A stretch of DNA of 64,000 nt from the IMG/VR virus record IMGVR_UViG_3300020048_000012; one strand, 5' to 3'. The notes beneath the pieces were generated by a model. It saw only the letters and a list, made by a program, of their open reading frames with translations. It was not told where the DNA came from and did no database searches. The DNA comes from a virus. Each line of letters opens with the position of its first letter. Position 1 is the stretch's first letter. Positions 838 to 40,428 of the stretch are shown piece after piece. The translations under genes were made by a program, and so were the position numbers.

Positions 838-1064
838 TTCTTATTACTCCAAACAATTACTTTATCACCAGCATACAGTGCATAACTAAATGTGATTATG
901 ATATTGATCACAGGTAGCACACCAAATAATAAACTTAATAATATCGAGTTTAATGTTAGTTGGCATCGCCCATCGTATTGTTTAAACTCATGAGCGGATA
1001 GCACCAATATAAGCGGAATGCAAACAACACATGATGTAATATAAAACCATATTGCTAAATTCAC
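834..1064 (-). CDS. small membrane protein, hypothetical
   Basis: 76 aa with two hydrophobic segments; ATGA coupling to the Nampt-like gene. Confidence 0.6.
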   Translation of the reverse strand: MNLAIWFYITSCVVCIPLILVLSAHEFKQYDGRCQLTLNSILLSLLFGVLPVINIIITFSYALYAGDKVIVWSNKK

Positions 1065-2782
1065 ATTGATTCCTTTACACGATTACGAATTGTTTCAATC
1101 GATTCGTTGCGAAATAAGTATCCGTTCAAGAACACAGTCTTCAATTCTCCGCTCATTTCTTCCTCAATTGATACATCGGATGTTAGGACATATTCACCGT
1201 CAACTTTATCTACACGTAGAAGTCCTTTAGCAGACTTCTTAGTTCCAGAATCAGTCTTTGGATCTTTGAAGATTGCTTGACCAACACCATCAATCTCAAC
1301 ATAAGTTGCTTTCATCGCAAAACCGAGTGAGTCTCGAGTAGTGTACTGGAACGTATAAGATCCAATGCCAAATACGATGTTATCAGATGCATAGCCTTTT
1401 TCTTGCAAACGCATTAGAATTTCTTCAGCACGGGCTGGAGTAATCGAGTCGCCGTAAATCAGACCAACCTTAGAATTTAGAGTCTTATATCCTTTATCGT
1501 TTGTAGTCGTTCCAAAGATTTCAGCAAGACATTCAACAGCGCCTTTTTCTGCAGGAGTTAGTTCCACTTTGTCAATAGAAGTAACATTAGATCCGTCTAC
1601 AAAATAATATTGTTTGTCATAGCGATTCCATTCAATTGATACTTTAACTTCGTAGTGTTCACCTGCGTATCGCATAATGCCACTGACTTCTGAATTGCCG
1701 CATTCACCATGACCAGCCTCTTCAGCTTCTGCCTCAACCAATTTTTCTCTCATCCATGCACCTGCATATTGCAATGTACCTGCTTTAGTCATATCCGGAA
1801 ACCGTTCACCACAAATAATCAAAACTGGGTCACCAGAGTCTGGACGAAACACAGTCTTAGCAAGACCAAATTGATCGGGTGTTCGCGCAAGAATTTCTTC
1901 TTTTAGTTCACGGGCTGTATTAGTGATAACATTCCAGAAGTCCCAAGTATCTGAAACAATCGAGACAACACCAGATGGATAAGTTTTCAGCAAGCGGCGG
2001 AATGTTTCAATTTCAGATTCCTTACCGCCTGCACACATTACACTATGCTCAGTTGCAGGAACTGAACCACCAATGAATGTGTTTTTGCCTTGGTATGCAT
2101 CACGAATATACTTTACAGCAGCAATGTTGTCGGTACCAGTAAAACTAAGCAAGTGACCAGCGCCAGACTTAGCAGCATCTTGTACACCCGACATACCGCG
2201 CATTGAGAAGTCGTGCCCTTGCCAATCGATGAACTCTTTGGAACCACCTGTCAATTCAGCATAGCGATTGATAATTTTACGATATACATAAGATGTCGAT
2301 GCCGACGTAGTAGACTTCCAAAGTTCAGTCGACAACCACGTTTCCATGAAGTTGGGCAACCAAAAGAATTCTGGCAACGTGTTAGTAATCGTCAAACATG
2401 GCACGCCAATTGGAATTCGTGAGCCTTCTGGCAATGCTTTAATTTCCAATGGCAAGTAACCAAGTTTATGCAAAGCCTTCAAGCGACTAGTATCAAATCC
2501 ATTGGGTCCACAGAATGGCGCATAGATTTCTTCAATTTCAGCGATAGCATCTTCCAAGTTATGAAAGAAGAAAGTCTCATTCCAAATGTATTTCATTTCT
2601 TGCAAGAACCCCTGCAAGCCAAACCATGTGATATGGCCATCCTTGTAACGATCTGGCACGTTAAAGTGATATTCAGATCGTGGAGTAAAGTTAGAGTAAA
2701 CTTTAGTTGTGCCTGCAGGATATTGATCTGCATGCCCGAGTTTGTAACTGTCAACGGAGGTAAGCGCGGTTTGTTTAAACAT
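1061..2782 (-). CDS. nadV: nicotinamide phosphoribosyltransferase-family protein (Nampt; probably Namat of NARP1)
   Basis: Motifs DSYKLGH, DFSMRG, PATEHSVM, VSDTWD, RPDSGDP, IYGDSIT, GIGSYTFQ; 573 aa with a ~75-aa insertion after RPDSGDP. Confidence 0.95.
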   Translation of the reverse strand: MFKQTALTSVDSYKLGHADQYPAGTTKVYSNFTPRSEYHFNVPDRYKDGHITWFGLQGFLQEMKYIWNETFFFHNLEDAIAEIEEIYAPFCGPNGFDTSRLKALHKLGYLPLEIKALPEGSRIPIGVPCLTITNTLPEFFWLPNFMETWLSTELWKSTTSASTSYVYRKIINRYAELTGGSKEFIDWQGHDFSMRGMSGVQDAAKSGAGHLLSFTGTDNIAAVKYIRDAYQGKNTFIGGSVPATEHSVMCAGGKESEIETFRRLLKTYPSGVVSIVSDTWDFWNVITNTARELKEEILARTPDQFGLAKTVFRPDSGDPVLIICGERFPDMTKAGTLQYAGAWMREKLVEAEAEEAGHGECGNSEVSGIMRYAGEHYEVKVSIEWNRYDKQYYFVDGSNVTSIDKVELTPAEKGAVECLAEIFGTTTNDKGYKTLNSKVGLIYGDSITPARAEEILMRLQEKGYASDNIVFGIGSYTFQYTTRDSLGFAMKATYVEIDGVGQAIFKDPKTDSGTKKSAKGLLRVDKVDGEYVLTSDVSIEEEMSGELKTVFLNGYLFRNESIETIRNRVKESM

Positions 2783-2793
2783 AATATATTTCC

Positions 2794-3627
2794 TTAAAGA
2801 TTGACAGATGGGTTCATGTTGTTGATTGCAAACACTTTGTCGTAAACAGACAATGACTCGATTCCTTTACTAAAGATTCCATGTGTGACGCACAATACCA
2901 ATTCTTTATCATATCCTCTTTCTCGAATAGCTTTGGCTAGTTCAATAAAGGTGCGACCTCCATCGCAAATATCATCAACGACATATAATACTTCAAATTG
3001 ATCCAAATTGCCATTTACGTAAGTTTTGACAATTTCGCCAGTCTCTGAGTCGCGATGCTTTGAAGCATTAATCACTGGAAGAATGACTTTTCCAAATGAC
3101 ACTTCTCTGATGAGCGATGCCAACTTATAAATTTTCTTTTGAGCGCCGGCGTCTGGCGCTACAAGTGCGACATTTCGATTACGTATATTTTGCATAATCT
3201 TACCTGCCCACAAACTCCATTGAGGAACCACATTTAAAAGACCAGGTTCAAACATACCCGCCAGCACATCGCTGTGTGGGTCCATGATTGTTACAGTCTT
3301 AAATTTGCATGCCTTAATAAGCTGAACAGCGACTTGCAATGCAAACGGCTCACCTTCAGTCATTACTCGATCTTGTCGAGCAAATGGGAAGTATGGAATA
3401 TCCAGGAAAATATCAGGTCGTGCAGAACCAATAATTTCGACGTTTCGAATTGCGTTGACAAGTAAAAGCATGTCAATCAAATCATTCGATCCTTCAAACT
3501 TGCAAGTAACAAACAAATCTCGACCATCAATGTCGCCGATGTCAATAATTTTGACATTGCGTTCGCCGCCAGGAAATGTCCACCATTTCAATTCAACTTC
3601 ATGTGTTCGTGTTTTGAGAGTAATCAT
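2794..3627 (-). CDS. prs: ribose-phosphate pyrophosphokinase-family protein (probably Adps of NARP1)
   Basis: FPGGE, PYFPFARQDR, DPHS, APDAGA and the PRPP-binding loop VVDDICDGGRTF. Confidence 0.92.
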   Translation of the reverse strand: MITLKTRTHEVELKWWTFPGGERNVKIIDIGDIDGRDLFVTCKFEGSNDLIDMLLLVNAIRNVEIIGSARPDIFLDIPYFPFARQDRVMTEGEPFALQVAVQLIKACKFKTVTIMDPHSDVLAGMFEPGLLNVVPQWSLWAGKIMQNIRNRNVALVAPDAGAQKKIYKLASLIREVSFGKVILPVINASKHRDSETGEIVKTYVNGNLDQFEVLYVVDDICDGGRTFIELAKAIRERGYDKELVLCVTHGIFSKGIESLSVYDKVFAINNMNPSVNL

Positions 3628-15294: not shown

Positions 15295-16155
15295 TCACTT
15301 ATAAAATGATTCTTCCCAAATTTTTCTATATTGAATCCAGCCTTTAAAATTTCCATGCATACTGGGTGATCGAGCTGGAGCATAATCATCAGGGGTTGCT
15401 TGGTGTTCAAGTGGCGATGCATGTAATGGTACGGCGCCAGCGAGTCGCATGAATAATTCTAAATCTTCATCACGTCCCGGCGATGTGCCATCCATTTTCA
15501 AGTAACTTACGCGGCAGCATCGAGCAGCAGAGATCTTTTGAAGCATATTGCGATTTGCTTCAATTTCTGTAAAGAATGGATCATTGCGCTCTTCTTCTGT
15601 GATATAAGGAAGATGCCATTCGCCTGGCGCTAGAAGCTTTGGAGTCGAATTAGCTCGTGCAACTTTCATCGTATGCGCCAATAGATGAATCTCGGGTTGT
15701 GCGTCATCATGATCACGAAGTTCATCCCAATTGTCCCATTCGGTCGAAGTGACAACGCCTTCGACATACAAATATGGTTCGATAGCACGATTGACAATCT
15801 GTTTATGAACTCCAATGTTAGCCATATACTCAGCTATATTTGCTGCAGCGTTGGCTGCGTCCATCCAAGCGGACTTAGCTTCGTCAAGATCAATCCCCAT
15901 CAACTCTTCATTGGCTTGCATGCCAGGTTGATTCTTGCCCCAATGAACAGGCATAGCAGGATCAGTGCGAACCTGCTCTAGAAGTTTTTTTGTGGGGATT
16001 GCTCGGCTTGAGCTGAAATTTCGAGAAAATACTCGATGAGTGTTAAATTCGCTCAATACAAACCTATGAAATTTAATTTGCATCGTGGTGATGCGCTTAC
16101 CTGCCTCGCTAATGCTGTCTTCGATAACTCTTGCTTTGATCATAATCACTTTCAT
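15295..16155 (-). CDS. thyX: flavin-dependent thymidylate synthase ThyX (phage type)
   Basis: EFNTHRVFSRNFSSSRAIP motif; SAARCCRVSY; HASPLEHQA. Confidence 0.85.
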   Translation of the reverse strand: MKVIMIKARVIEDSISEAGKRITTMQIKFHRFVLSEFNTHRVFSRNFSSSRAIPTKKLLEQVRTDPAMPVHWGKNQPGMQANEELMGIDLDEAKSAWMDAANAAANIAEYMANIGVHKQIVNRAIEPYLYVEGVVTSTEWDNWDELRDHDDAQPEIHLLAHTMKVARANSTPKLLAPGEWHLPYITEEERNDPFFTEIEANRNMLQKISAARCCRVSYLKMDGTSPGRDEDLELFMRLAGAVPLHASPLEHQATPDDYAPARSPSMHGNFKGWIQYRKIWEESFYK

Positions 16156-22252: not shown

Positions 22253-25141
22253 TTATTTTGTATATGTTGCATGAGCTAAACGAGTGTTTTCGATCTTACG
22301 AACTCTCGGTGCCAACTTCATTGCTAATCTATTTATTAGAGCTTTTCTATTCTGAATAGTCTTCTCGATACGTTCTTTCTCGCCGATGGATAGAGTATCA
22401 AGAGGTTTTTTAGCTAAACGAGTCTTCATTAGTTTAACGGCTAATCTGCGGGCGCGGTTATTAATGACACTCATGCTTGAGTGAGTCTTAAGAGCGATTT
22501 TGATTTTACGTTCACGTTTGGCGGAAGATCTTGCGAATCGCGCTTTTGCTTTAATGCGTTCCATGCGAGATAAGACTTCATTCAACGCCTCTTCTTTGAG
22601 ATCATCGACATGTTCGCCAGTCTCGTCGTCAATCAAGGCGAGTTCATCGTCATCGTATACATCAAGAATATCATCTTCGTGATTAATCGAATTCACGATA
22701 TCGTCCATGTCTTCATCGGACATATCGTCTTCGTCGTCTAGATCTTCGTCTTCAGCGGCTGATTCTTTTAATCGAGCTCTCTCGGCTTGTTGCTTGGCTA
22801 CAAGTTGCTCTTTTTCTTTTGCTTGTTTAGCGAGCAAAGCAGCTTTGTCAGTATTCTTTGAAGCTTCTTTTGCTTGATCTACTTCTTCATGGACATACTT
22901 GACTTTCATGCGACGTACAGAATCAGATTGCTCTGGACTAGTCATAGTATGGCCGACGCCTTTATCGACTGGATGTTCTACGCCAGTATTACGAGCAACA
23001 GACAATTGACGTTTCAATTCTTCGATATCTTTGCCCATGATCTTAGCATTAGATATCTCTTCTAAAATATCAGAGATAAATTCTTCTTTCTTAAGATCAT
23101 TGTCAAATTGCTTGTTCGTGGCTTTTACGATACCACTAAACTTTTTATTGGCGCGATTAGTCCAACGCTTGCCCATTTCATGCTCGCCAGCTTTATGAGA
23201 AATTTCTGCAGCCTTATCTGCCGCACTTGCGTATTCACTTGCCTTTTTCTTATAGCGGCCAAGAAGATCTGTCGATAGTTCATCAAGTGTTTCTTCTTTA
23301 ATCGAATGACGTTCAATCTTTTCAATTGAGCCACCAAACAATTTATAATGCTGCTTCTTCACATCATCATCTGTTGTATCTTTATGAACATTATATGTCT
23401 TTTTAAGAGGTTCGCTAGTCCATTTTGTTTTATAGTGCACTGTGGCTTTATGTCCGGTATCTCCAGAAAACACTTCATCAAGTTCAGTTTCTTCTGATAT
23501 CTTCTTAACTTCAGATGCTGGGTCAAATCTAGTTTTAAAATTCTTTTTACCATATTTAAACTTCGCTTCAATATGACCAGATAATTTATGCGGACCTGCT
23601 GTCACTTCTGCGTCATGCCAAACGCCGCCAAGGTGAACTTTTACTTTATCGCCGACATTATGTTGATTGACTTCTTCTGATAAAGCTTTTGGCGCAAGAG
23701 ACATATCGACTTTAACACCAACTTCCATTGCAAGCGCGAGCATCTTCTTAACGACTACGATTAAATCAGGTGTCATTCGCTTATTCTTAATCTTGCGTAA
23801 CCCAGCATTTACGGCTGAATCGGGTGACATAGACTCGGCGTTTTCAACACCAAGAACATCTGCGATCATGCGAGCGACTTTGATTTTATCACCAGACTTA
23901 ATAGTCTTGTCGGTTAGTTCTTCTTGTATCATATCATCCTTAATTTCGTATGAATCTGCCATTTCGACAGCTGGACTATCGGGAGCGTAATTCGTTAGCA
24001 TGTCTTGAATTTCATGCTCATGAGTATGCCAATAATCAAAATGGTGCATAAACTCACCAATTCTATTCAATGAATCGCGCGCTTTGTCATGAGCAATATG
24101 CCAAGATTTTACTTCATCTTTCTCGGGCGCTACACTATCTTCAAGATGCATATCATTAATTTTCATGTAAGCGTCTGTTGCTTTTAACGCATTCAGCACA
24201 GCAACAGCGTCTGTTATCTCGCCCTTATTATACTTTTCGATCGTAGATTGAAAAGACTTTGCTGCATCAGCAGAGTGATGTAGATTCTTTGTTGTATAGC
24301 CTTTAAATGATACTTCTTCTGGCACATAACCCGAAGTCACATCTTCTTTAATTTTTACTTTATGAATAGCATCAAGCCATTTCTTACTGATGTCACCCGA
24401 CTCATTGACGACAGAAACGTAATTTGGACCGCGGTCAATGATTTCAAAGATATTTGTTCCGTCACTTACTTTATCACCAATGCTAAAAATCTTGCCTGCG
24501 TGGTATTTTTCACGCAATTTATTTGTTTCGAACTTAATGCTTTCTTTAACAATCTCAAGACCTAGTCCTTGACGAATCTCATTCATTAGACGCTTACCAT
24601 CTATATCCAATAGAGTGCGAGGCAGACCATTTCTAAACGCTGCGTAATCACCCTTCTTAGCTGCTTCTCGCATCTTGGTGCCGGACATGCCACTTGCAGT
24701 ATCAGAGTCGGGATCTCTTTCACCCGCTGATACAACTTCGACTGTATCAAACTTAAAGACGTCGCCGTTGTATTTGTGTAGGATTTTTGTGTATTCTGGA
24801 ACTCGATCAGATCCTGCGATCATGATGACGTTCTTGTATTTCTTTGACAGGAGAGTTGCAACTTCAATGAAAGTGCGAATTTGGTCATTCGCAGCAACAA
24901 AGTTAGTCTTTGGAAACATCTTTTCCAAATAATGGACTTTGCGATCTACAGGAAGAGGATTTGACTTTTTGTCGTGGCTGCGAGAAGCAAAAATGATATG
25001 ATCTGCTTTCTGTTGAGAAGCTATCTTTTTGACTGCACCAATAAGTATGGCGTGGCCATTTGTAGGAGGTTGAAAACGGCCAAAAGCAAATACTACTGTT
25101 TTTGAAGGCAGTTCTTTAATAAGACTCTTATATTGTTTCAT
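22253..25141 (-). CDS. HxGH-superfamily nucleotidyltransferase (cytidyltransferase/NMNAT-like) fused to a long head-protein polyprotein
   Basis: N-terminal FGRFQPPTNGH, AGSDRV, SAGERDPD, MSGTKMR; the remainder has xxEE-delimited modules including EETLDELST.LL.RY. Confidence 0.8.
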   Translation of the reverse strand: MKQYKSLIKELPSKTVVFAFGRFQPPTNGHAILIGAVKKIASQQKADHIIFASRSHDKKSNPLPVDRKVHYLEKMFPKTNFVAANDQIRTFIEVATLLSKKYKNVIMIAGSDRVPEYTKILHKYNGDVFKFDTVEVVSAGERDPDSDTASGMSGTKMREAAKKGDYAAFRNGLPRTLLDIDGKRLMNEIRQGLGLEIVKESIKFETNKLREKYHAGKIFSIGDKVSDGTNIFEIIDRGPNYVSVVNESGDISKKWLDAIHKVKIKEDVTSGYVPEEVSFKGYTTKNLHHSADAAKSFQSTIEKYNKGEITDAVAVLNALKATDAYMKINDMHLEDSVAPEKDEVKSWHIAHDKARDSLNRIGEFMHHFDYWHTHEHEIQDMLTNYAPDSPAVEMADSYEIKDDMIQEELTDKTIKSGDKIKVARMIADVLGVENAESMSPDSAVNAGLRKIKNKRMTPDLIVVVKKMLALAMEVGVKVDMSLAPKALSEEVNQHNVGDKVKVHLGGVWHDAEVTAGPHKLSGHIEAKFKYGKKNFKTRFDPASEVKKISEETELDEVFSGDTGHKATVHYKTKWTSEPLKKTYNVHKDTTDDDVKKQHYKLFGGSIEKIERHSIKEETLDELSTDLLGRYKKKASEYASAADKAAEISHKAGEHEMGKRWTNRANKKFSGIVKATNKQFDNDLKKEEFISDILEEISNAKIMGKDIEELKRQLSVARNTGVEHPVDKGVGHTMTSPEQSDSVRRMKVKYVHEEVDQAKEASKNTDKAALLAKQAKEKEQLVAKQQAERARLKESAAEDEDLDDEDDMSDEDMDDIVNSINHEDDILDVYDDDELALIDDETGEHVDDLKEEALNEVLSRMERIKAKARFARSSAKRERKIKIALKTHSSMSVINNRARRLAVKLMKTRLAKKPLDTLSIGEKERIEKTIQNRKALINRLAMKLAPRVRKIENTRLAHATYTK

Positions 25142-29982: not shown

Positions 29983-31173
29983 TTACAAAAATGACTCTAA
30001 ACTCTGAGGTGGATCGAAGCTTCGCATCTCATATGTCTGATTGTTATTGAATTGATATAGAAGATCTACATTCAACCAATCTCGTTCACCGTTGAGCACC
30101 GCTTTAATCTCATTGGCCATGTCAGTTGCAGTCGTAACTGGAACGTTCTGACAAATGTGATTCAGATTAGCTTTAGGATTAAGCAACTCGAAATCATATG
30201 GAAGAGCCATAATGCTCATGGCTTCACGATAAGTGATGTAGCGATCTTCGTCAGGGTGAGTAAGATACATTGGCATATGACCAACGAAAGCACCTGTATA
30301 TCCTTTACCGATCACAGAGTATCGACGCATGATGTTTCCGCCCGCATCAAGCTTATCTTGAATTCCATCAAGCTTTCCTGCGATCTTATCATATCCGTTT
30401 GCACTCATCCACTTCTTTACATCACGATATGACACACCTTTGTTTTCGATGTACGACATCGTATCAACTGTCTTCTCAATCATATTAAAGAAGTCTTGAT
30501 GAGTAATTCCACCATGCATTTCCTCAAGAATATAACGATAGAATGGATCATCCTTCGAAGGAGTCTTAGTGTTCGTGAGTTCGTTTTGAGTAAGACCTTT
30601 TGGAATCTCGCGTAGAAGTGTTTCAATAGACTTGCGTGGTTTATCGAACCACTCGAATATTGGAACTCTATCACCTTGCCAGAAGAAATAGAAACTGCGT
30701 TCTCGCACTTGACTCAGTCCATGCAATAGTGACTTAGTTCTATAAATTGACATCGTGTAACCATTGTCTCGCGCAATGGCATGTAACTTCTTTACGATAG
30801 GTTTTCCCATCTCGCCTGCAAACCGAGGGGCATTTTCGCCCCAGAAGACTTTAGGCTTCATCTCTTCAAGAACATACTTCGCAGTCGTAGTCAACCAATC
30901 GTTAACTGCTGCGTCCGAGTTAGCCGATGGAGATAGAGAAGACAAACCTGCGCATGGGCAGACGCCATTCACTACATCTACATGGTGTGGATGACGCCCA
31001 CCCTCATCTAATAGAATATATGGTACATTCTGCAAGTGATGCACTAGGTGCGAATCGTTATTGCTAAATGGTGAATATGATAAAAGATAGTCTGGTTTAG
31101 ATCCAAATGAAATCATCTGCCCTATAGTTTCTCCGCCAATCAATGGTACAATTGATGCATGCGTAATATTCAT
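29983..31173 (-). CDS. C5-cytosine DNA methyltransferase homolog with divergent SAM-binding motifs
   Basis: Motif IV CPCAGLS, VI GENAP, VIII QVRER, IX HP..RYITYREA; motif I reads SIVPLIGG and motif X reads HICQNVP. Confidence 0.8.
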   Translation of the reverse strand: MNITHASIVPLIGGETIGQMISFGSKPDYLLSYSPFSNNDSHLVHHLQNVPYILLDEGGRHPHHVDVVNGVCPCAGLSSLSPSANSDAAVNDWLTTTAKYVLEEMKPKVFWGENAPRFAGEMGKPIVKKLHAIARDNGYTMSIYRTKSLLHGLSQVRERSFYFFWQGDRVPIFEWFDKPRKSIETLLREIPKGLTQNELTNTKTPSKDDPFYRYILEEMHGGITHQDFFNMIEKTVDTMSYIENKGVSYRDVKKWMSANGYDKIAGKLDGIQDKLDAGGNIMRRYSVIGKGYTGAFVGHMPMYLTHPDEDRYITYREAMSIMALPYDFELLNPKANLNHICQNVPVTTATDMANEIKAVLNGERDWLNVDLLYQFNNNQTYEMRSFDPPQSLESFL

Positions 31174-31760
31174 TGAATTTCCTTGTGCTTTCTTTTTATG
31201 TGAAGAGCTACATTCCCGACATTATTTTCGAATTCGCAATGTGGACACTTTTTCATTTTATGAATAGCATTTAAACATTTTTGTTTCTTAATTGGATCTG
31301 CCATGTGCTCGATTGATCTCTTTTTGCGTAATTGTTGCGATTCTTCATCAGAGTAATAGTTCTCTTTAAACGATTCACCCTGCTTCTTTTTTAATTCTTC
31401 ATCTTTCATTCTTTCGCTCTGAAACATCGATCTAAATTTAGATACAGCACTGGCGCTTTCATCCCAATTGTATCCAACTCCGCCTGCGGCTAAATTCCAT
31501 CCTATATTTTCATATGGTCGAAGTTTATGTTCTAGTTCATAACAATATAACATATCAGCATAGCATAAAATCTTAACATGATCATCAAAATTTATTTTGT
31601 TAATTCTGATGATCGTATGCATATGTCTAGATGAATTCTTATGACCAACAAATCGGCGTCTAACTCCTCTTTTGGAGTTAGTGACACCAATATAACCATG
31701 CTCTAGAGAATTTGGATACTCAGGATTGATGATATGATATACCATCCATCTTATTGTCAT
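31170..31760 (-). CDS. GIY-YIG homing endonuclease-like protein
   Basis: WMVYHI...GYIGVT...RRRF..H...ELE...GWNLAAGG; C-terminal CPHC; ATGA overlaps on both sides. Confidence 0.8.
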   Translation of the reverse strand: MTIRWMVYHIINPEYPNSLEHGYIGVTNSKRGVRRRFVGHKNSSRHMHTIIRINKINFDDHVKILCYADMLYCYELEHKLRPYENIGWNLAAGGVGYNWDESASAVSKFRSMFQSERMKDEELKKKQGESFKENYYSDEESQQLRKKRSIEHMADPIKKQKCLNAIHKMKKCPHCEFENNVGNVALHIKRKHKEIQ

Positions 31761-32962
31761 AGATTTTCTTTGATTTGATTCATCATTTCTTCAAATACAT
31801 ATTGTGAATCTTGATGAGATTTATAAAATTCGAAAGCTTGTTCACGGTATTCATTACGCATAACAGAATCTTTCGATAGCTTATTTACCAAATCTAGAGC
31901 GGGTTGCATATTGTCATCGTCTAACCAAATCGTACCCGTGTCTTTGCAGTTGATAAGTCTATCACCGTATTTGCGGTGAGTGCAACGTTCGCCGTATGCT
32001 TTACGAAACACTGGGACTACGCCGGTGCATGCAACTTCGCAATGAGTGTATTCAATGCTACGTTCGATGAAACGCTCATTGAGTAAAGACAACTGATATC
32101 CAAAGCCAGATTTGCTCATACGTTCAAGCATCTGATCATTAATGAATGGACCAAAAACATACACCGGTTCGTTCGATTTGAGATGAACTGTGTTGATATC
32201 TTGATCGATCATACCATGAAACTCTGACAGTTCACGGAATCCTAGATACGCAGGCGATTTTTCGATGCCTTCGAATGTAGTGATGTAACCATTTGGACGA
32301 AGAAATTCGTTATGGAATTTGAACATCTGAACATAACCTTTCCACGAAGTAGTGCGACCAATCCATTTGTGATAGAGTGGAGCAGTTTCATCGATGGGTT
32401 TCCAATACTTAGCACGAACAGAATCAAAGTCCATGCCGGGTTGGAAGTTCAAGATCTTCTTAGAATTGTCTTCTTCGAAGAAGTCTGTTAAGGCGCCACC
32501 ACCAGTTGAAGACTCGACAAGACGAGCAAAATCATTGTTGCGACTATGGCCAAAAAGAATATCAGCTTTTGCGATAGACTCGTCGATTGCAGCATTGCGT
32601 TTAATTGACAGCGAAGAGTGATCATGCTGGACGAGTACAACTGGTTTAGTGACTTCATTTAGAAACCTCTTAAATTGAATAATAGAATTCTCGGGATGAC
32701 CGGCTGATGGAAGACTATTGATGATGATAACATCCGATGCATTAGCGCCATCGATCATCTTCTGCATTTCTTCGGGTTTAGCGAATTTCAATTGAACTAC
32801 GTGCGCCACGTCATGTGCATTCTTTCGAGTCCACGATTTATCTTTTGACGAATAAACAGTAAAGTCATGACCATTCTTTGCAAGCCATTTAGTCTGCTCA
32901 ACTGTAAATTTTGTGACACCACAACCTTCGATGCCACGACCCATGATGATAGCAATTTTCAT
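31757..32962 (-). CDS. a-gt: DNA alpha-glucosyltransferase
   Basis: GRGIEGCGVTKF..EQ..W..KNGH...KDKS.TR, QHDHS..S..RN, WIGRTTSWKG, EYTH.E match recalled T4 alpha-gt. Confidence 0.92.
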   Translation of the reverse strand: MKIAIIMGRGIEGCGVTKFTVEQTKWLAKNGHDFTVYSSKDKSWTRKNAHDVAHVVQLKFAKPEEMQKMIDGANASDVIIINSLPSAGHPENSIIQFKRFLNEVTKPVVLVQHDHSSLSIKRNAAIDESIAKADILFGHSRNNDFARLVESSTGGGALTDFFEEDNSKKILNFQPGMDFDSVRAKYWKPIDETAPLYHKWIGRTTSWKGYVQMFKFHNEFLRPNGYITTFEGIEKSPAYLGFRELSEFHGMIDQDINTVHLKSNEPVYVFGPFINDQMLERMSKSGFGYQLSLLNERFIERSIEYTHCEVACTGVVPVFRKAYGERCTHRKYGDRLINCKDTGTIWLDDDNMQPALDLVNKLSKDSVMRNEYREQAFEFYKSHQDSQYVFEEMMNQIKENL

Positions 32963-33435
32963 TATTCAGACACTCCTTCAATGTATTCTGTAGTCGGCGT
33001 GTATGGAAATGTCACGTACACACGACTTTTACTGCATGTGTAATATGACTTGAATTTCTCACCATCTTCTTCATTCGTGCACCAATCATAGAACACTTTG
33101 CCTTGAATGTCGTAAGCACCGTCTTCATCTTTAAACACATGACTGCAACGTTTGTTTTGAAAACAGACTTTACCTGGACTGTATTCAGACATATCATTCC
33201 ATTCCCAATCTTCGCCCGTCAATGGAACGATTGGCTCGAACTTTGCAAGCTTAGCGAACAAATTAATCGCGTACGGCGCAGAAGATCCAGAATGACCCTC
33301 GCCGTCGAACACTTTCAATAGAGCTAAGACGTGTTCACAGATCATCTTCTGCATGTCGTCTGTATAGTTGTCAGTTTCATCGATCCAACCTGCAGCGCGA
33401 AATTCATTCAATGCATGTGTTTCATAGTTACTCAT
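32962..33435 (-). CDS. conserved hypothetical phage protein
   Basis: GHSGSSA...PLTGED.EW...QNKRCS.VFK pattern seen in many phages. Confidence 0.7.
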   Translation of the reverse strand: MSNYETHALNEFRAAGWIDETDNYTDDMQKMICEHVLALLKVFDGEGHSGSSAPYAINLFAKLAKFEPIVPLTGEDWEWNDMSEYSPGKVCFQNKRCSHVFKDEDGAYDIQGKVFYDWCTNEEDGEKFKSYYTCSKSRVYVTFPYTPTTEYIEGVSE

Positions 33436-34047: not shown

Positions 34048-34491
34048 TTATGAAATGAACTCATATTCTATTTCTGCCTCATCTAGCATATCACATGTGT
34101 TCTTCCATGAGGCAGCCCATGTTTCAGGCACTTCTTCATCGACTCGACAGATGATCTTCTTTGCACCGATCTGAATCAAACCCTTTGCGCATTCACTGCA
34201 CACCGGCAATCCATATACGTATATATGAGAATTGTCGAGTGAGATTCCACTATGACATGCATTGAAAATCATGTTCATTTCTGCATGTACAACGTACTTA
34301 TATTTCGTAGGACGATCGTTCAATCGTCTTGGTGTATCGACGATGCCACGAGGAAAGCCATTGTAGCCTCCGCTCAAGATAATTTTCTTGAATGGATCGA
34401 CTGCAACAGCGCCAATTTTACGAGATGGATCTTTGCTAAACGTAGAATATTGTTTAGCAAATTCCATGAAACGAGAATCCCAAGTGTTCAT
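34048..34491 (-). CDS. cd: dCMP deaminase
   Basis: SKDP..KIGAV, GYNGFPRG, HAEMN, PVCSECAK. Confidence 0.93.
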   Translation of the reverse strand: MNTWDSRFMEFAKQYSTFSKDPSRKIGAVAVDPFKKIILSGGYNGFPRGIVDTPRRLNDRPTKYKYVVHAEMNMIFNACHSGISLDNSHIYVYGLPVCSECAKGLIQIGAKKIICRVDEEVPETWAASWKNTCDMLDEAEIEYEFIS

Positions 34492-35220: not shown

Positions 35221-35979
35221 TCATTTAAATACACTTTCAGGAAATTTATTTTTGTATTCGTCCTTTGAGATATTATTTTCGCCAGTTTTAGCATAATGAT
35301 CAATTAAATAGAACTGTCTTTCGTATATGTGTAAAGATCCTGCGCTCCAGTAAATTGGGCCAGATGTATAATCTTTGGATCCTTCAATGAAGGCATCTTT
35401 ACGCCACGTATTAAGGCGCTTTAATAGTTCATTATGAACGAATTTAATCCATGCCAAATCATTTCTATATCCTGCCCATGCATCATTGCTTCTCATATTC
35501 ATGCACGTAATCAATTGATTATTGCGAATAAAATGTTGAGTAGAATATGTGCACATGAAGTCGCTCATACCATTTTTGTTATAGTCGACATGCATTGATG
35601 GTCGATTATAAATCATTGTGGCTCGGCGAGAAAATGGATTCGCAATCAATTCGTTTGCTGTTTGCATAAACTGATTGCCATTCTCTTCAGAGAAAACACA
35701 CCAACCATAATTGCTATTAATGAATCCATTCTTATCGGCGACTTGTTTCCAAATTGCAGGAGCACCACCAGGAATATCATTGACATTAAGACTCTTCGAC
35801 ATATACCACATCAACTCACGGCTAATGTAGTCGTAATTTGGTTCACCAAAGATCGCTTCTTCGTCAGCAATAAAGTGTGCGTCAATAATCTCGACTGTCT
35901 TAACGCCCGACTTATCGATTACAAATTCTTCGTTATTCAAGAGACGAACAAACTCTGTGCGAATATCATTGACGTTCAT
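35221..35979 (-). CDS. 42: dCMP hydroxymethylase (thymidylate synthase family, T4 gp42 type)
   Basis: NSNYGW, SRRA.MIY.RPSM, DFMCT, MRSND...G.RND.AW with Asp at the specificity position (Asn in ThyA), AGSLHIYERQF. Confidence 0.9.
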   Translation of the reverse strand: MNVNDIRTEFVRLLNNEEFVIDKSGVKTVEIIDAHFIADEEAIFGEPNYDYISRELMWYMSKSLNVNDIPGGAPAIWKQVADKNGFINSNYGWCVFSEENGNQFMQTANELIANPFSRRATMIYNRPSMHVDYNKNGMSDFMCTYSTQHFIRNNQLITCMNMRSNDAWAGYRNDLAWIKFVHNELLKRLNTWRKDAFIEGSKDYTSGPIYWSAGSLHIYERQFYLIDHYAKTGENNISKDEYKNKFPESVFK

Positions 35980-36401
35980 GACTTGACACCAACTACACCA
36001 ATTTGTTCTTGTTCACCGTGCATTTTTGGTTGAAATTTGACAGGAATGAGACTTAGATTGGTCTGACCACGACGATTGAAGATATCTTTGCCGGGTTCTT
36101 GACCATCGATATCGCCGCGAAGATATGCAACGACAAACGAAAGATAGTTGATTGCATCAAGCGCCGAATCTTCGACAGATTCAAAATTGATCTTGCCGCC
36201 GGACTCCATTGTTTCAAGAACTGAATACATACGAAGAAGCTTACCATTCACAGTATCAAGAATAGTGTATACACCGCGTGGATAATGATCTACTTGTCGA
36301 ACACGACTCAATGGGTTCTGGTAATCATCCCCCTTGCGCTGCTGAATTTCTGCCGCTTCGAGAAGGATGTTGGCTGATTCGCGTTTAAATTGTTTTGTCA
36401 T
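35976..36401 (-). CDS. nucleotide-modification-associated all-alpha protein (Nmad1-like)
   Basis: K..DY...K..R...ESVEDS.LD.INY pattern; immediately upstream of gp42. Confidence 0.5.
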   Translation of the reverse strand: MTKQFKRESANILLEAAEIQQRKGDDYQNPLSRVRQVDHYPRGVYTILDTVNGKLLRMYSVLETMESGGKINFESVEDSALDAINYLSFVVAYLRGDIDGQEPGKDIFNRRGQTNLSLIPVKFQPKMHGEQEQIGVVGVKS

Positions 36402-36991
36402 TAATTGTTTCCTTTATAAGTGCATTCTCTCATATTAATTATATCACATTGTCCGTATTTTTTTGCAATATCATGATTGAAATACGGCAGTTGTCTAGGG
36501 AATTTCGATTGCATAAAATAATTAAAAAATGTTTTTGCATTAGCAACTAAAGCAAAATCGACGATGTATGCATCACCGTATGTTTCCATATAGCCACTGA
36601 CAAAATAATCTAAAGTCGATGCATATTTTCTAAACGTTTTCATTCCATCATCTGGGTATGAAAACCATTTTGTTCCAAGTGCATGGCGTTTAACTTCAAA
36701 ATATGTGTCATCGACGCGAACATCCCATCGAAATGTTTCCGGATTATACATATCCCATTTATTTGGATTTCTTTCGCCGCCAAGAATTTTAGCTAGTGCA
36801 TACTCAATTGCAATTCTAGAACAATCATTAAATACTTGATCGTATGATCGCCTGCGAGCATTACGTCGTGGGCAAGGGTATATCGCCCTAGTCATTTGTG
36901 TGATATCGTCAAAGATTTCGTCTTTTTCAACCACTATTGTATTAGTGTTAGAAAGTATCGTAGATACTTGTTGTAATGTCAGTTTAGTCAT
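36401..36991 (-). CDS. putative PD-(D/E)xK nuclease
   Basis: IAIEYA...WDVRVDDTYFEVK pattern; first gene after an early promoter. Confidence 0.45.
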   Translation of the reverse strand: MTKLTLQQVSTILSNTNTIVVEKDEIFDDITQMTRAIYPCPRRNARRRSYDQVFNDCSRIAIEYALAKILGGERNPNKWDMYNPETFRWDVRVDDTYFEVKRHALGTKWFSYPDDGMKTFRKYASTLDYFVSGYMETYGDAYIVDFALVANAKTFFNYFMQSKFPRQLPYFNHDIAKKYGQCDIINMRECTYKGNN

Positions 36992-37991: not shown

Positions 37992-39017
37992 TTATTTTAA
38001 AGCCTGCGTTAGAAGTCCATGATTATCTGAGTGTGATGGTGGAATCCAATCTGGATTCTTAATTAAATCTGGAAGTTTCCATGGATTTGGTCGACTTGCT
38101 TTTACACCAACTTCTTTATTCATATTTGCTTTAAGTACTTCATACCAAGCTTTCTTAAAATCTACTTGATAAAGATCTAGTGTACCAATTGCGACGACAA
38201 TTAAATCGATTAGTGCGTCGCATACTTCTTCAGGATCTTTTGCGTCAATTGCAGCAACGCCTTCATTTAGTTCTTCTTGTAGGAATCTAAATCTAAATTT
38301 AAGATATTCTTCCAAATGTTCTTTTGGAAGCTTAGCCATAGCTTCGTGAATCCCATAAAAATCATGCATCATACGAATATCATCTGAGATAATTGGTGTT
38401 TTACTAAACGTTTTGCTTAGTGCGCTCCAACGATTTTTAGATTTTTGTTTATTTGATTTAGATCCCATCATTACTCCGTTCATTTTAATGTTACTGACAA
38501 GTTTATTTCTACCAATCGACGAAAGATTAAGCGGTTTGCCACGCTTAGCCATTGACATTTTTGTTTTAGCCACATCTGTATGATGCTTTCCATACATTGG
38601 ATTGTGTATTCCAATTTTATCATATTTGCCTATATTCGTGTTATCTCTTTTATAGAATGCGGCGATATATTTCTTTCTTTTATCAGAATTTAACCATGCT
38701 TCTTTTGTTTTTGTTGATATAATCTTTCTAGTTTCTATTCCATGAGAACCGTCATATCCACCATGACGCAAATTATAAAAATCTTTAGAATTTGTCGCAT
38801 CATAGTATTCGATGTAGCGCTTCTCCATTTCAGATGCTTCTTCTATATTTCCTTCAAATAAATCGTGCCGTATGAAAAAGCATTTTCCATATTTCTTTAA
38901 TGCTCTTGTTATGATTTTTCCAGAACCGACATACCCACTATCAATTGATTTACTAGTCACGCCGATGTAGCACTTATAATTTATCATATTAAGTGTAATA
39001 TAGACGTAATATGTCAT
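37992..39017 (-). CDS. fusion: Seg-like GIY-YIG endonuclease (N) + MazG-like NTP pyrophosphohydrolase (C)
   Basis: N: YVY...CYIGV...YVGSG...YNL..GG, NPMYGKHHTD. C: FLQEELNE...EEVCDALIDL..VA.GT...V.KANM.K. One uninterrupted frame; AAGGA RBS before MTYYV. Confidence 0.82.
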   Translation of the reverse strand: MTYYVYITLNMINYKCYIGVTSKSIDSGYVGSGKIITRALKKYGKCFFIRHDLFEGNIEEASEMEKRYIEYYDATNSKDFYNLRHGGYDGSHGIETRKIISTKTKEAWLNSDKRKKYIAAFYKRDNTNIGKYDKIGIHNPMYGKHHTDVAKTKMSMAKRGKPLNLSSIGRNKLVSNIKMNGVMMGSKSNKQKSKNRWSALSKTFSKTPIISDDIRMMHDFYGIHEAMAKLPKEHLEEYLKFRFRFLQEELNEGVAAIDAKDPEEVCDALIDLIVVAIGTLDLYQVDFKKAWYEVLKANMNKEVGVKASRPNPWKLPDLIKNPDWIPPSHSDNHGLLTQALK

Positions 39018-39027
39018 ATTATTTTCC

Positions 39028-40428
39028 TTAAAATTTAAAATCATTCATTCCTTCGCCCGATTGTTTCATCCTCTTTCCAAAAGATGATTTATCGAACATC
39101 GGCCCATCGTCTTTAGCAACTTGTCCTGTGTCGCTAATATTCTTTTGAGCGGATTCTTCTACATCATATAGTTTCATTCTCGCTCGATCAATCCCAATTA
39201 CGAATCGTTTATAATATCCCGGATCATTGTAACGATTCTTAAGTTGCTTAACCATAATTTGATTAAGATTTTCAAGTTCTTCAGTGGAGATCAATGCAAA
39301 CATCAAGTCGCATGTCTGAGGAAGACCGATACTTTCGCTCGTGTTTGTCATATCAATATCACTATTGCCCATACCTGAACGAGTTGTCTGTGTAGCGCTA
39401 AGCAGTGGGACATCATATTCTTGTGCTAAACCACGAAGTTCTTCTGCAATAGACTTAACGATTGTATATGAATTTGCAGTTGAATTTTTAACTCGTGATG
39501 ATGCACAAATATTCAAATAGTCGACAATAATAATGTCAGGTGCAAAGTCTTTCTTAATCTTCAGTTCATCTAATAGCGATTTAAAATGACCTGCATGCCC
39601 ACAAGCAGTGGGATATTCTTTAATGACTAATTTGCCTGAAGTCTTTTTAATAAGCTTATTGATCTTAGTTTCATAGATGTCTTTACTTACATTCCCAAGT
39701 TCATCCATCGTAAGATTCAACAGATTTGCATCGATACGTTCAGCGATACGCTGTTCTGACATTTCTAACGTAATGTACAAAACATTTTTATTTTGCATTA
39801 GAGTGGATGCAGCCACGTGGCACATAAACAAACTCTTACCGACGCCAGTAGATGCCAATGCAACAGTCAATGTTTTCTTTGCAATACCGCCTTTGGTAAT
39901 CTTATTAAAGATATCGAGATCGAATTCTACTTTCTCTTCAACTCTATGGTAAAAATCAAATCGCTCTGCAGAATCATCAAGATAATCATGACCTACGCTT
40001 GTATCGAAACACACACTCAATGCTTCGGACATCATTGATGGAATTGCTTCTTCTGTATGAACTTTGTCCTTACCTTCAATGATATCGAATGCATCAAGAA
40101 TAGCATTGGTGATTGCGCGTTGTTTGCACCATTTCTCTACATTTTCAAGTAACCACTTTTCGTTGTCAGTCTTAAACGTCAAATCATTAATATATTTTTC
40201 AATACCAGAAACTTGATCACTATTCAATTTACGCTGGGACAATTGAATAGCGAGAATATCTAACGAAGCAGGTTTATTATACGTGTTGAAAAATGTTAGA
40301 AGTTCTTCAGCGATGACACGCTCATAATGATCTTGAAAATACTCGTTCTTTAAGAATGGAACCACCTTACGACAAAATTCTTCATTGTGGATCAAGTTTG
40401 AAAGGATAGTCTTCTCTATTTTGCTCAT
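39028..40428 (-). CDS. 41: replicative DNA helicase gp41
   Basis: Walker A ASTGVGKS, YITLEMSE, IKEYPT, IVDYLNIC, SATQTTR, QLKNRY. Confidence 0.97.
   Translation of the reverse strand: MSKIEKTILSNLIHNEEFCRKVVPFLKNEYFQDHYERVIAEELLTFFNTYNKPASLDILAIQLSQRKLNSDQVSGIEKYINDLTFKTDNEKWLLENVEKWCKQRAITNAILDAFDIIEGKDKVHTEEAIPSMMSEALSVCFDTSVGHDYLDDSAERFDFYHRVEEKVEFDLDIFNKITKGGIAKKTLTVALASTGVGKSLFMCHVAASTLMQNKNVLYITLEMSEQRIAERIDANLLNLTMDELGNVSKDIYETKINKLIKKTSGKLVIKEYPTACGHAGHFKSLLDELKIKKDFAPDIIIVDYLNICASSRVKNSTANSYTIVKSIAEELRGLAQEYDVPLLSATQTTRSGMGNSDIDMTNTSESIGLPQTCDLMFALISTEELENLNQIMVKQLKNRYNDPGYYKRFVIGIDRARMKLYDVEESAQKNISDTGQVAKDDGPMFDKSSFGKRMKQSGEGMNDFKF

Follow-up and report, generated by a model that had tools for sequence, protein, structure and literature searches.

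The MTL gene and its motifs

The analysed window, a stretch of 64,000 nucleotides from the IMG/VR virus record IMGVR_UViG_3300020048_000012, belongs to a T4-like phage of aquatic or freshwater metagenomes and has no close relative among sequenced phages. Positions 29983-31173 of the window, on the minus strand like all other window features described below, encode a protein of 396 amino acids (aa) that is here called MTL. Translation confirmed a single intact open reading frame (ORF), and this ORF, its match to PF00145 and an AlphaFold model place the gene in a PLIGG/QNVP subfamily with the C5-cytosine methyltransferase fold. Its catalytic residues are those of DNA cytosine methyltransferases, its S-adenosylmethionine (SAM) pocket is altered in a way that is fixed across a large family, and it is linked to genes for the replacement of cytosine. 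Judged from its sequence, MTL is a strong candidate for an undescribed DNA-modification reaction.

An earlier note on this DNA had described motifs IV, VI and VIII as canonical and motifs I and X as altered. Both alterations are present. Motif I (31132-31155, residues 7-14) reads SIVPLIGG in place of FxGxGG, with V9, P10 and L11 for F, x and G according to structural and hhalign mapping, and motif X (30139-30159, residues 339-345) reads HICQNVP in place of GNAVP, with Q342-N343 for N-A/S in a gapless HMMER alignment to M.HaeIII and CmoX, a phage homolog of the C5-methyltransferases. In that alignment to the GNAVP of M.HaeIII and to CmoX, Gln342 falls on the position of Asn304 in M.HhaI; a gapped hhalign alternative for motif X retains the Asn. 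Motif VI (ENA, 30829-30837, Glu113; context GENAP) and motif VIII (QVRER, 30697-30711, Gln155, Arg157 and Arg159; context SQVRERSF) were found to be canonical in an alignment of 128 representatives of the family. Translation and alignment showed that motif IV (CPCA, 30949-30960; context GVCPCAGLS) contains the catalytic Cys74 followed by Ala75 where Gln is canonical; it is only partly canonical, because it has PCA and not the near-universal PCQ.

The register of motif I was fixed by two comparisons, the structural alignment and an hhalign match to a profile of Dcm orthologs (96% probability), in which V9-P10-L11-I12-G13-G14 pairs with F-A-G-I-G-G and only the GG is retained. The part of the profile alignment that covers motifs II and III was of low confidence, and the hhalign match to the single Dcm sequence was weak. 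From the secondary structure of the model, the Glu-aromatic pair of motif II, which binds the ribose and adenine of SAM, would correspond to S32-Y33 at the end of strand beta2 (31075-31080), and the Asp of motif III to D56. No acidic residue is conserved at positions 32-34 of the family, which are Ser (89%), aromatic (95%) and variable.

Profile searches divided the protein in the same way. PF00145 matched MTL at 8.8e-16 (58.7 bits, cut-off 22), only over profile positions 60-323, from motif IV onward, and the NCBIfam dcm model TIGR00675 gave 24.3 bits against a cut-off of 100.65. Sequence search matched no solved methyltransferase to the first 66 residues, and the N-terminal 60 residues were unrecognised in Pfam, NCBIfam and PDB sequence searches. 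By fold and catalytic motifs MTL is a relative of the C5-methyltransferases; by the sequence of its SAM motifs (I, the Gln of IV, X and probably II) it would fall outside their canonical membership.

Predicted fold

The AlphaFold model of MTL, built on 128 homologs, had a pLDDT of 96.5 and superposed on M.HaeIII, M.HhaI, DNMT1 and CmoX with Z scores of 24-26 over residues 1-363. The structural matches included 1dct (Z 26.3) and 1fjx (Z 25.8). Compared with M.HaeIII and M.HhaI, the Z scores were 25-26 and the root mean square deviation was about 3 Å over 275-293 residues. Residues 1-363 of the model aligned with residues 10-325 of M.HhaI, the first residue of the model falling on HhaI residue 10. 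The AlphaFold model and the structural comparison thus indicate that the two-domain C5-methyltransferase fold is complete in MTL.

Conservation of the MTL family

MTL belongs to a family with 2427 matches in a collection clustered at 90% identity. At 50% identity the family comprises 742 clusters, and 235 of these lie below 1e-30. The four Atlas clusters examined, those nearest to MTL, were all viral, and the three best were 100% viral. The family was found in only six records of the phage collection, whichever query was used, and single distant members used as queries recovered few or no IMG/VR loci. The family is large, apparently restricted to viruses, and uncharacterised.

Conservation was measured in 128 full-length representatives with 29-62% identity to the window protein. 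Glu113, Arg157 and Arg159 were invariant, and Cys74 (99%) and Gln155 (98%) nearly so. The altered residues of motif I were as well fixed (P10 97%, L11 96%) as the retained glycines (G13 98%, G14 96%). Position 75 was always a small residue (A 84%, S 11%, G 5%), and Q342 (96%) and N343 (95%) were conserved in motif X. The signature (I/V)PLIGG...S(Y/F/W)...PC(A/S)GLS...ENAP...HGxPQxRxR...QNVP occurred in every deep branch of a star-like tree and in nine more divergent members drawn from the loci. Exceptions without the signature were rare; one of them, P0142, has lost the PC and ENA motifs. In L086 (678-2665) this degenerate member lies directly downstream of an Apyc1-like anti-Pycsar gene.

These results bear on two points of the earlier note, which had asked whether the changes in motifs I and X are conserved across homologs and had named scattered loss-of-function changes as a sign of decay. 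The changes are conserved, and decay was not borne out: MTL is not decaying, because the changed residues are themselves 84-98% fixed at this degree of divergence, far more than chance would allow. The alignment indicates that the family is a distinct functional class under purifying selection.

Some members are longer than MTL. No additional Pfam, PHROG or PDB domain was found in the long fused forms P0173, P0181, P0183 and P0261, whose contigs were too short for context. P0222 (L185), a protein of 598 aa encoded on a TARA ocean scaffold, carries a CXXC zinc finger at its C-terminus, and the MTL member P0183 (L186) forms the N-terminus of a 1462-aa protein. Neither of these two short contigs contains another complete gene, and P0222 and P0183 may be of eukaryotic or giant-virus origin.

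Genome context of MTL in the window

As the earlier note had proposed, MTL closes an operon that contains gp42 and alpha-gt. A hairpin resembling an intrinsic terminator (29981-29960, 9-bp stem) stands right after the MTL stop codon and is followed by a T4-type late promoter, TATAAATA (29951-29944), read from the sequence as the start of the next cassette. This places MTL at the end of an early or middle transcription unit. The same strand carries, upstream of MTL, the DNA alpha-glucosyltransferase gene alpha-gt (31757-32962, PF11440 at 1.4e-91), a dCMP deaminase gene (34048-34491, PF00383 and phrog_174) and a gp42-type dCMP hydroxymethylase gene (35221-35979). The last is a thymidylate synthase homolog (PF00303) with Asp as its specificity residue (YRND), and its product was 56-58% identical to annotated dCMP hydroxymethylases. 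A T4-type module for making 5-hydroxymethylcytosine (hmC) before replication, consisting of an Asp-type thymidylate synthase homolog, a dCMP deaminase and a DNA glycosyltransferase, is thus complete in one operon.

The full order upstream of MTL, nearest gene first, is a GIY-YIG-like gene, alpha-gt, a Tad3 homolog, the dCMP deaminase gene, another homing endonuclease gene and the gp42-type gene; beyond these are a small conserved ORF, a weakly DenB-like gene, a primase gene, a homing endonuclease/MazG fusion, gene 41, uvsX and gene 43. In the fusion (37992-39044), domain searches identified a homing-endonuclease domain (phrog_314, NUMOD3) joined to a nucleoside triphosphate pyrophosphatase of the MazG/PRA-PH type. 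In relatives the MazG part heads the gp42 module, and in the window it is likely to be a dCTPase analogue.

The start codon of MTL overlaps the stop codon of the gene upstream. That gene (31170-31760) is a GIY-YIG-like homing-endonuclease ORF of 196 aa, recognised by a GYIGVT...R...H motif, which lies between alpha-gt and MTL with an overlap at either end. It matched no Pfam or PHROG family, and tblastn found it in one of 83 related loci, L002, whose contig is 100% identical to the window. The ORF lies outside the conserved cassette and, by its sequence and distribution, looks like a recent homing-endonuclease insertion.

Other genes in the window were noted in passing. The Tad3 homolog, an inhibitor of type I Thoeris (32962-33435, PF25185 at 1e-35), lies inside the hmC operon and was found in 2 of the 83 related loci. 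The weak DenB-like homolog of endonuclease IV (36401-36991, phrog_1360 at 8e-6) has beside it a 141-aa ORF (35976-36401) with homology to the latter half of a PHROG of two-domain MazG-type hydrolases; 39 loci conserve this ORF immediately before gp42. Elsewhere in the window are a NAMPT/NAPRTase and phosphoribosyl pyrophosphate synthetase pair (1061-3627), a 962-aa protein with a cytidylyltransferase-like N-terminus (22253-25141) and a ThyX-type thymidylate synthase (15295-16155).

Linkage to cytosine replacement genes

The order gp42, dCMP deaminase, in some loci alpha-gt, and then MTL was common to 80 IMG/VR loci in which MTL was 52-72% identical to the window protein. In the stretch examined, gp42 was present in 58 of 83 loci and alpha-gt in 52 of 83, and most of the others were truncated contigs. 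Synteny within a close clade may be inherited, and distant members of the family were therefore examined. The Asp at the specificity position of a thymidylate synthase homolog marks specificity for dCMP, true thymidylate synthases having Asn, and alignment showed Asp at this position in every MTL-linked homolog.

In Pseudoalteromonas phage XG4 (MTL 30% identity) MTL follows a gp42-like gene at a distance of 4.6 kb, and a sugar nucleotidyltransferase-kinase gene and two glycosyltransferase-like genes lie between them. In cyanophage S-TIM61 of the S-TIM5 group (MTL 32% identity) the sole thymidylate synthase homolog is about 2.4 kb from MTL. It is annotated ThyA (L001 4769-5605), and it is probably dCMP-specific because Asp (GVPLD) replaces the Asn of true thymidylate synthases. 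The S-TIM61 genome also contains, elsewhere, a weakly alpha-gt-like ORF of 430 aa, and by sequence the S-TIM5-type cyanophages may carry modified cytosine. On the P0233 contig (MTL 31% identity), MTL, an epimerase gene and a thymidylate synthase homolog occur within 3.5 kb in another gene order, the homolog being 2.4 kb downstream of MTL. When gp42 was taken as the starting point, MTL genes with 26-41% identity were found 1-7 kb downstream of it in seven loci (L140, L145, L158, L162, L166, L171 and L182).

The gene directly before MTL was less constant. In relatives this slot was occupied by alpha-gt, TAGT, other glycosyltransferases, sugar-nucleotide enzymes or a kinase, TAGT being directly upstream of MTL in L007 and L162. 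Slot genes included a 5-hydroxymethyldeoxyuridine-DNA-kinase-like gene with an inositol-phosphate-synthase-like gene, an epimerase with a UDP-galactopyranose mutase, NeuB with an inositol-phosphatase-like gene, and nucleotidyltransferase-kinase fusions with glycosyltransferase-like genes. Examples of varied gp42-MTL slots are L056 2867-3928, L063 7035-10014, L108 1473-3696 and L097 1329-5344. Because the slot varies, MTL appears to be tied to gp42-type cytosine replacement generally and not to glucose, and the gene content of the slots suggests many different decorations of cytosine. The earlier note had asked whether MTL homologs co-occur with gp42 and alpha-gt. They do so with gp42-type genes, at 26-72% MTL identity, distances of 1-7 kb and in several gene orders, but not with alpha-gt, which is replaced in relatives.

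Four whole relatives, the two complete IMG/VR genomes G001 and G002, S-TIM61 and XG4, were searched for PF00145, CmoA and TET genes. Each contained exactly one PF00145 gene. None contained CmoA (TIGR00740), a profile that did match control genomes, and none matched Tet_JBP (PF12851), a profile without a match in the control genomes either. TET was likewise absent from the annotated neighbour genes, the scan for TET having covered only some of the window ORFs.

Proposed function and alternatives

These data are best accounted for if MTL catalyses a DNA-modifying reaction other than textbook methylation, using either an adenosyl donor that is modified or bound in another way, or a cofactor-free exchange at the hydroxymethyl group of hmC, a reading to which we give roughly an even chance. 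We infer its substrate, co-substrate and product from the fold, the catalytic residues, the altered pocket that is fixed family-wide and the genetic linkage. MTL would be a functional branch of the C5-cytosine DNA methyltransferases that is peculiar to phages and serves as the last gene of cassettes for gp42-type cytosine replacement and sugar decoration. It is read as a base-flipping DNA enzyme because the Cys, the Glu, the Arg-x-Arg and a DNA-methyltransferase fold with a target-recognition domain are kept. If the mechanism follows that of M.HhaI, Cys74 would add to C6 of a cytosine-type base flipped out of the DNA while Glu113 protonates N3 and Arg157 and Arg159 hold the base.

The cleft that holds SAM in other members of the class appears to be rebuilt, with F to V/I and the first Gly to Leu in motif I, Glu to Ser in motif II, PCQ to PCA in motif IV and GNA to (small residue)QN in motif X. 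These changes would replace the Phe that stacks on adenine, the Glu that binds ribose, the first Gly of the methionine loop, and Gln82 and Asn304, which flank the methyl group. MTL probably acts on DNA after replication. Little plain cytosine should be left in the phage DNA at that point, because 5-hydroxymethyl-dCTP feeds replication and the MazG-type pyrophosphatase is likely to be a dCTPase. In one possible course of the reaction, put forward tentatively, Cys74 adds to C6 of hmC, the hydroxyl is lost, and the exocyclic methylene is captured by a nucleophile held in what was the SAM cleft; an unusual adenosyl donor might instead deliver a group other than methyl. That the product is a new cytosine base is less likely than not but a real possibility.

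A different co-substrate or base hypermodification had already been suggested in the earlier note. The fixed signature and the gp42 linkage appear to strengthen the suggestion. The idea of non-standard chemistry gains because two findings that could have told against it, decay of the gene and homologs unlinked to hmC genes, were both looked for and not found.

Several observations weigh against this interpretation. The GG of motif I is kept, position 33 is aromatic in 95% of the representatives and position 56 is acidic in most (D 70%, E 9%), and these residues could still form an adenine pocket. Gln has been lost from motif IV and gained in motif X, which could be a compensating exchange that leaves methyl transfer intact. 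As regards linkage, part of that in the close clade is inherited synteny and not independent association. MTL is also an accessory gene, present in only 16 of 41 gp42 loci that extended at least 7 kb downstream, and a search of the phage collection found enterobacterial T-even phages without it, so the link is not obligatory. Two MTL contigs with flanks of 6-10 kb had no thymidylate synthase homolog nearby; contigs G005-G007 are truncated immediately before MTL and are uninformative on this point. Finally, no conserved cofactor-synthesis gene was found with MTL.

MTL might instead be an ordinary SAM-dependent methyltransferase with unusual motifs, forming 5-methylcytosine (5mC) at residual cytosines of the phage or at specific sites in host DNA, which is the most serious of the alternatives though somewhat improbable. 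The fold and the catalytic motifs are complete, the PF00145 score is above the cut-off, the motif I GG, the aromatic residue at 33 and Asp56 are retained, and the gene is the sole PF00145 member in each of the four whole relatives. Moreover, SAM-binding loops are known to vary widely among methyltransferase classes. However, six canonical cofactor contacts appear to have been replaced, with the replacements fixed throughout the 742 clusters, no sequence similarity to solved C5-methyltransferases was detected in the N-terminal cofactor half, and the NCBIfam dcm score is 24 bits where the cut-off is 100. From T4 biology, gp42 and the MazG-type pyrophosphatase should leave little cytosine to methylate. 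The Q82A substitution in M.HhaI, at the position where MTL has a small residue, lowers methyl transfer (PMC3526304).

A second alternative, which we consider unlikely, is that MTL is directed at the host and attacks unmodified host cytosines covalently without a methyl donor, blocking the DNA or converting C to U and so contributing to host shut-off and the breakdown of DNA. The phage's own DNA would be shielded by its 5-substituent, and unmodified host cytosines would therefore be the target. MTL shares its early operon with the weak homolog of DenB, a cytosine-specific endonuclease, and has kept the catalytic Cys, Glu and Arg while its SAM contacts changed. C5-methyltransferases deprived of SAM are known to deaminate cytosine slowly, and a CXXC zinc finger, which in eukaryotic proteins reads unmodified CpG, is attached to one member of the family. 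On the other hand, the fixed place of MTL at the end of a set of DNA-modification genes suggests that its substrate is phage DNA, no linked uracil-DNA glycosylase was found, and deamination is a slow side reaction in the known enzymes. The CXXC fusion is a single cluster, from a 2.4-kb marine scaffold of unassigned origin.

The possibility that MTL methylates C5 of cytosine in RNA, for example tRNA, in the manner of DNMT2 is very improbable. DNMT2-type structures were among the matches to the model (EhMeth, Z 21), but the best structural matches were DNA-bound DNA enzymes, the genes to which MTL is linked serve the modification of DNA bases, and DNMT2 is known to keep canonical SAM motifs. A decaying or non-catalytic remnant, to which the non-canonical motifs I and X and the degenerate P0142 might point, can hardly be credited and appears effectively refuted by the conservation pattern, given the intact frame, close homologs 68-92% identical over the full length, invariant catalytic residues and altered residues conserved at 84-98% in distant representatives, and a fold predicted with very high confidence.

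Significance

The family presents a paradox in that a methyltransferase-like gene occurs, in hundreds of phage lineages, within a pathway that removes the normal substrate of a methyltransferase. Phage relatives of the C5-methyltransferases can switch chemistry by small changes in the pocket, as the carboxymethylation by CmoX illustrates, and thymidylate-synthase-based cassettes have recently been reported to hide new bases such as 5-hydroxycytosine. If MTL makes a new base, it would represent a new route of DNA hypermodification, a new anti-restriction layer of phages and possibly a new tool for labelling 5hmC, and an undescribed base would occur alongside glycosyl-hmC in many aquatic phages. 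If MTL is only a methylase, the SAM motifs of the C5-methyltransferase class are far more plastic than has been assumed. The question is directly testable, as cyanophage S-TIM5 and Pseudoalteromonas phage XG4 are cultured carriers of MTL.

Comparison with known systems

Among the papers that were searched, none described the MTL family, its link to gp42 cassettes or any thymidylate-synthase-linked C5-methyltransferase homolog; one of them (bioRxiv 2023.12.21.572611) mentions methyltransferases near thymidylate synthase and glycosyltransferase pathways in passing only. The bacterial type II C5-methyltransferases of PF00145, such as M.HhaI, M.HaeIII and Dcm, resemble MTL in their two-domain fold and motif order, and their catalytic Cys of motif IV, the Glu of ENV and QxRxR are retained in MTL. 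They differ in the cofactor motifs, where MTL has (I/V)PLIGG for FxGxGG, probably Ser for the motif II Glu, PCA for PCQ and xQNVP for GNAVP. Two of the positions concerned, Gln82 and Asn304 of M.HhaI, flank the transferable group, and the Q82A substitution slows methylation (PMC3526304).

CmoX is a phage DNA cytosine C5-carboxymethyltransferase in which a change corresponding to Asn304 to Arg gave use of carboxy-SAM (PMC12783734). Like MTL, CmoX (PDB 8YF3) is a phage C5-methyltransferase homolog with a small residue at the Gln82 position (Ser, by alignment) and a changed Asn304, and the two proteins match in structure (Z 24.4) and by profile (6e-15). CmoX keeps Phe25, Glu47/Phe48 and Asp69 for adenosine, uses Arg350 for the carboxylate and CmoA as its partner, and acts on plain cytosine at GC sites (PMC12783734). 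MTL, in contrast, has Gln at the Arg position and lacks the Phe and probably the Glu, and by sequence it would be more strongly remodelled than CmoX. The residues that define CmoX, SPPC and the Arg at the Asn304 position, are replaced in MTL by VCPCA and Gln342. With Gln342, no SPPC and no CmoA in the four whole relatives, a carboxymethyltransferase of the CmoX type was rejected.

The phage C5-methyltransferases coupled to TET/5mYOX and TAGT (PMC8256090; bioRxiv 2023.12.21.572611) share with MTL a cassette that includes DNA glycosyltransferases. In those systems the methyltransferase makes 5mC for TET and stands first, whereas MTL stands last and hmC is made before replication by a gp42-type enzyme. 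A TET-coupled methylase was set aside, as no TET was found in the four whole relatives, with a profile that did not match the control genomes either, and gp42 already supplies hmC.

The T4 gp42/thymidylate synthase family is a mechanistic analogue of the proposed reaction and not a relative of MTL. Its members activate pyrimidines by addition of a Cys to C6 and pass through an exocyclic-methylene intermediate, chemistry that MTL would also require for an exchange of the hmC hydroxyl, but they have another fold and act on mononucleotides with methylene-tetrahydrofolate, whereas MTL has the DNA-methyltransferase fold with a target-recognition domain. Within the C5-methyltransferase class itself, enzymes are known to react with 5-substituted cytosines, among other things binding 5hmC covalently and removing its hydroxymethyl group when SAM is absent (PMC11347137).

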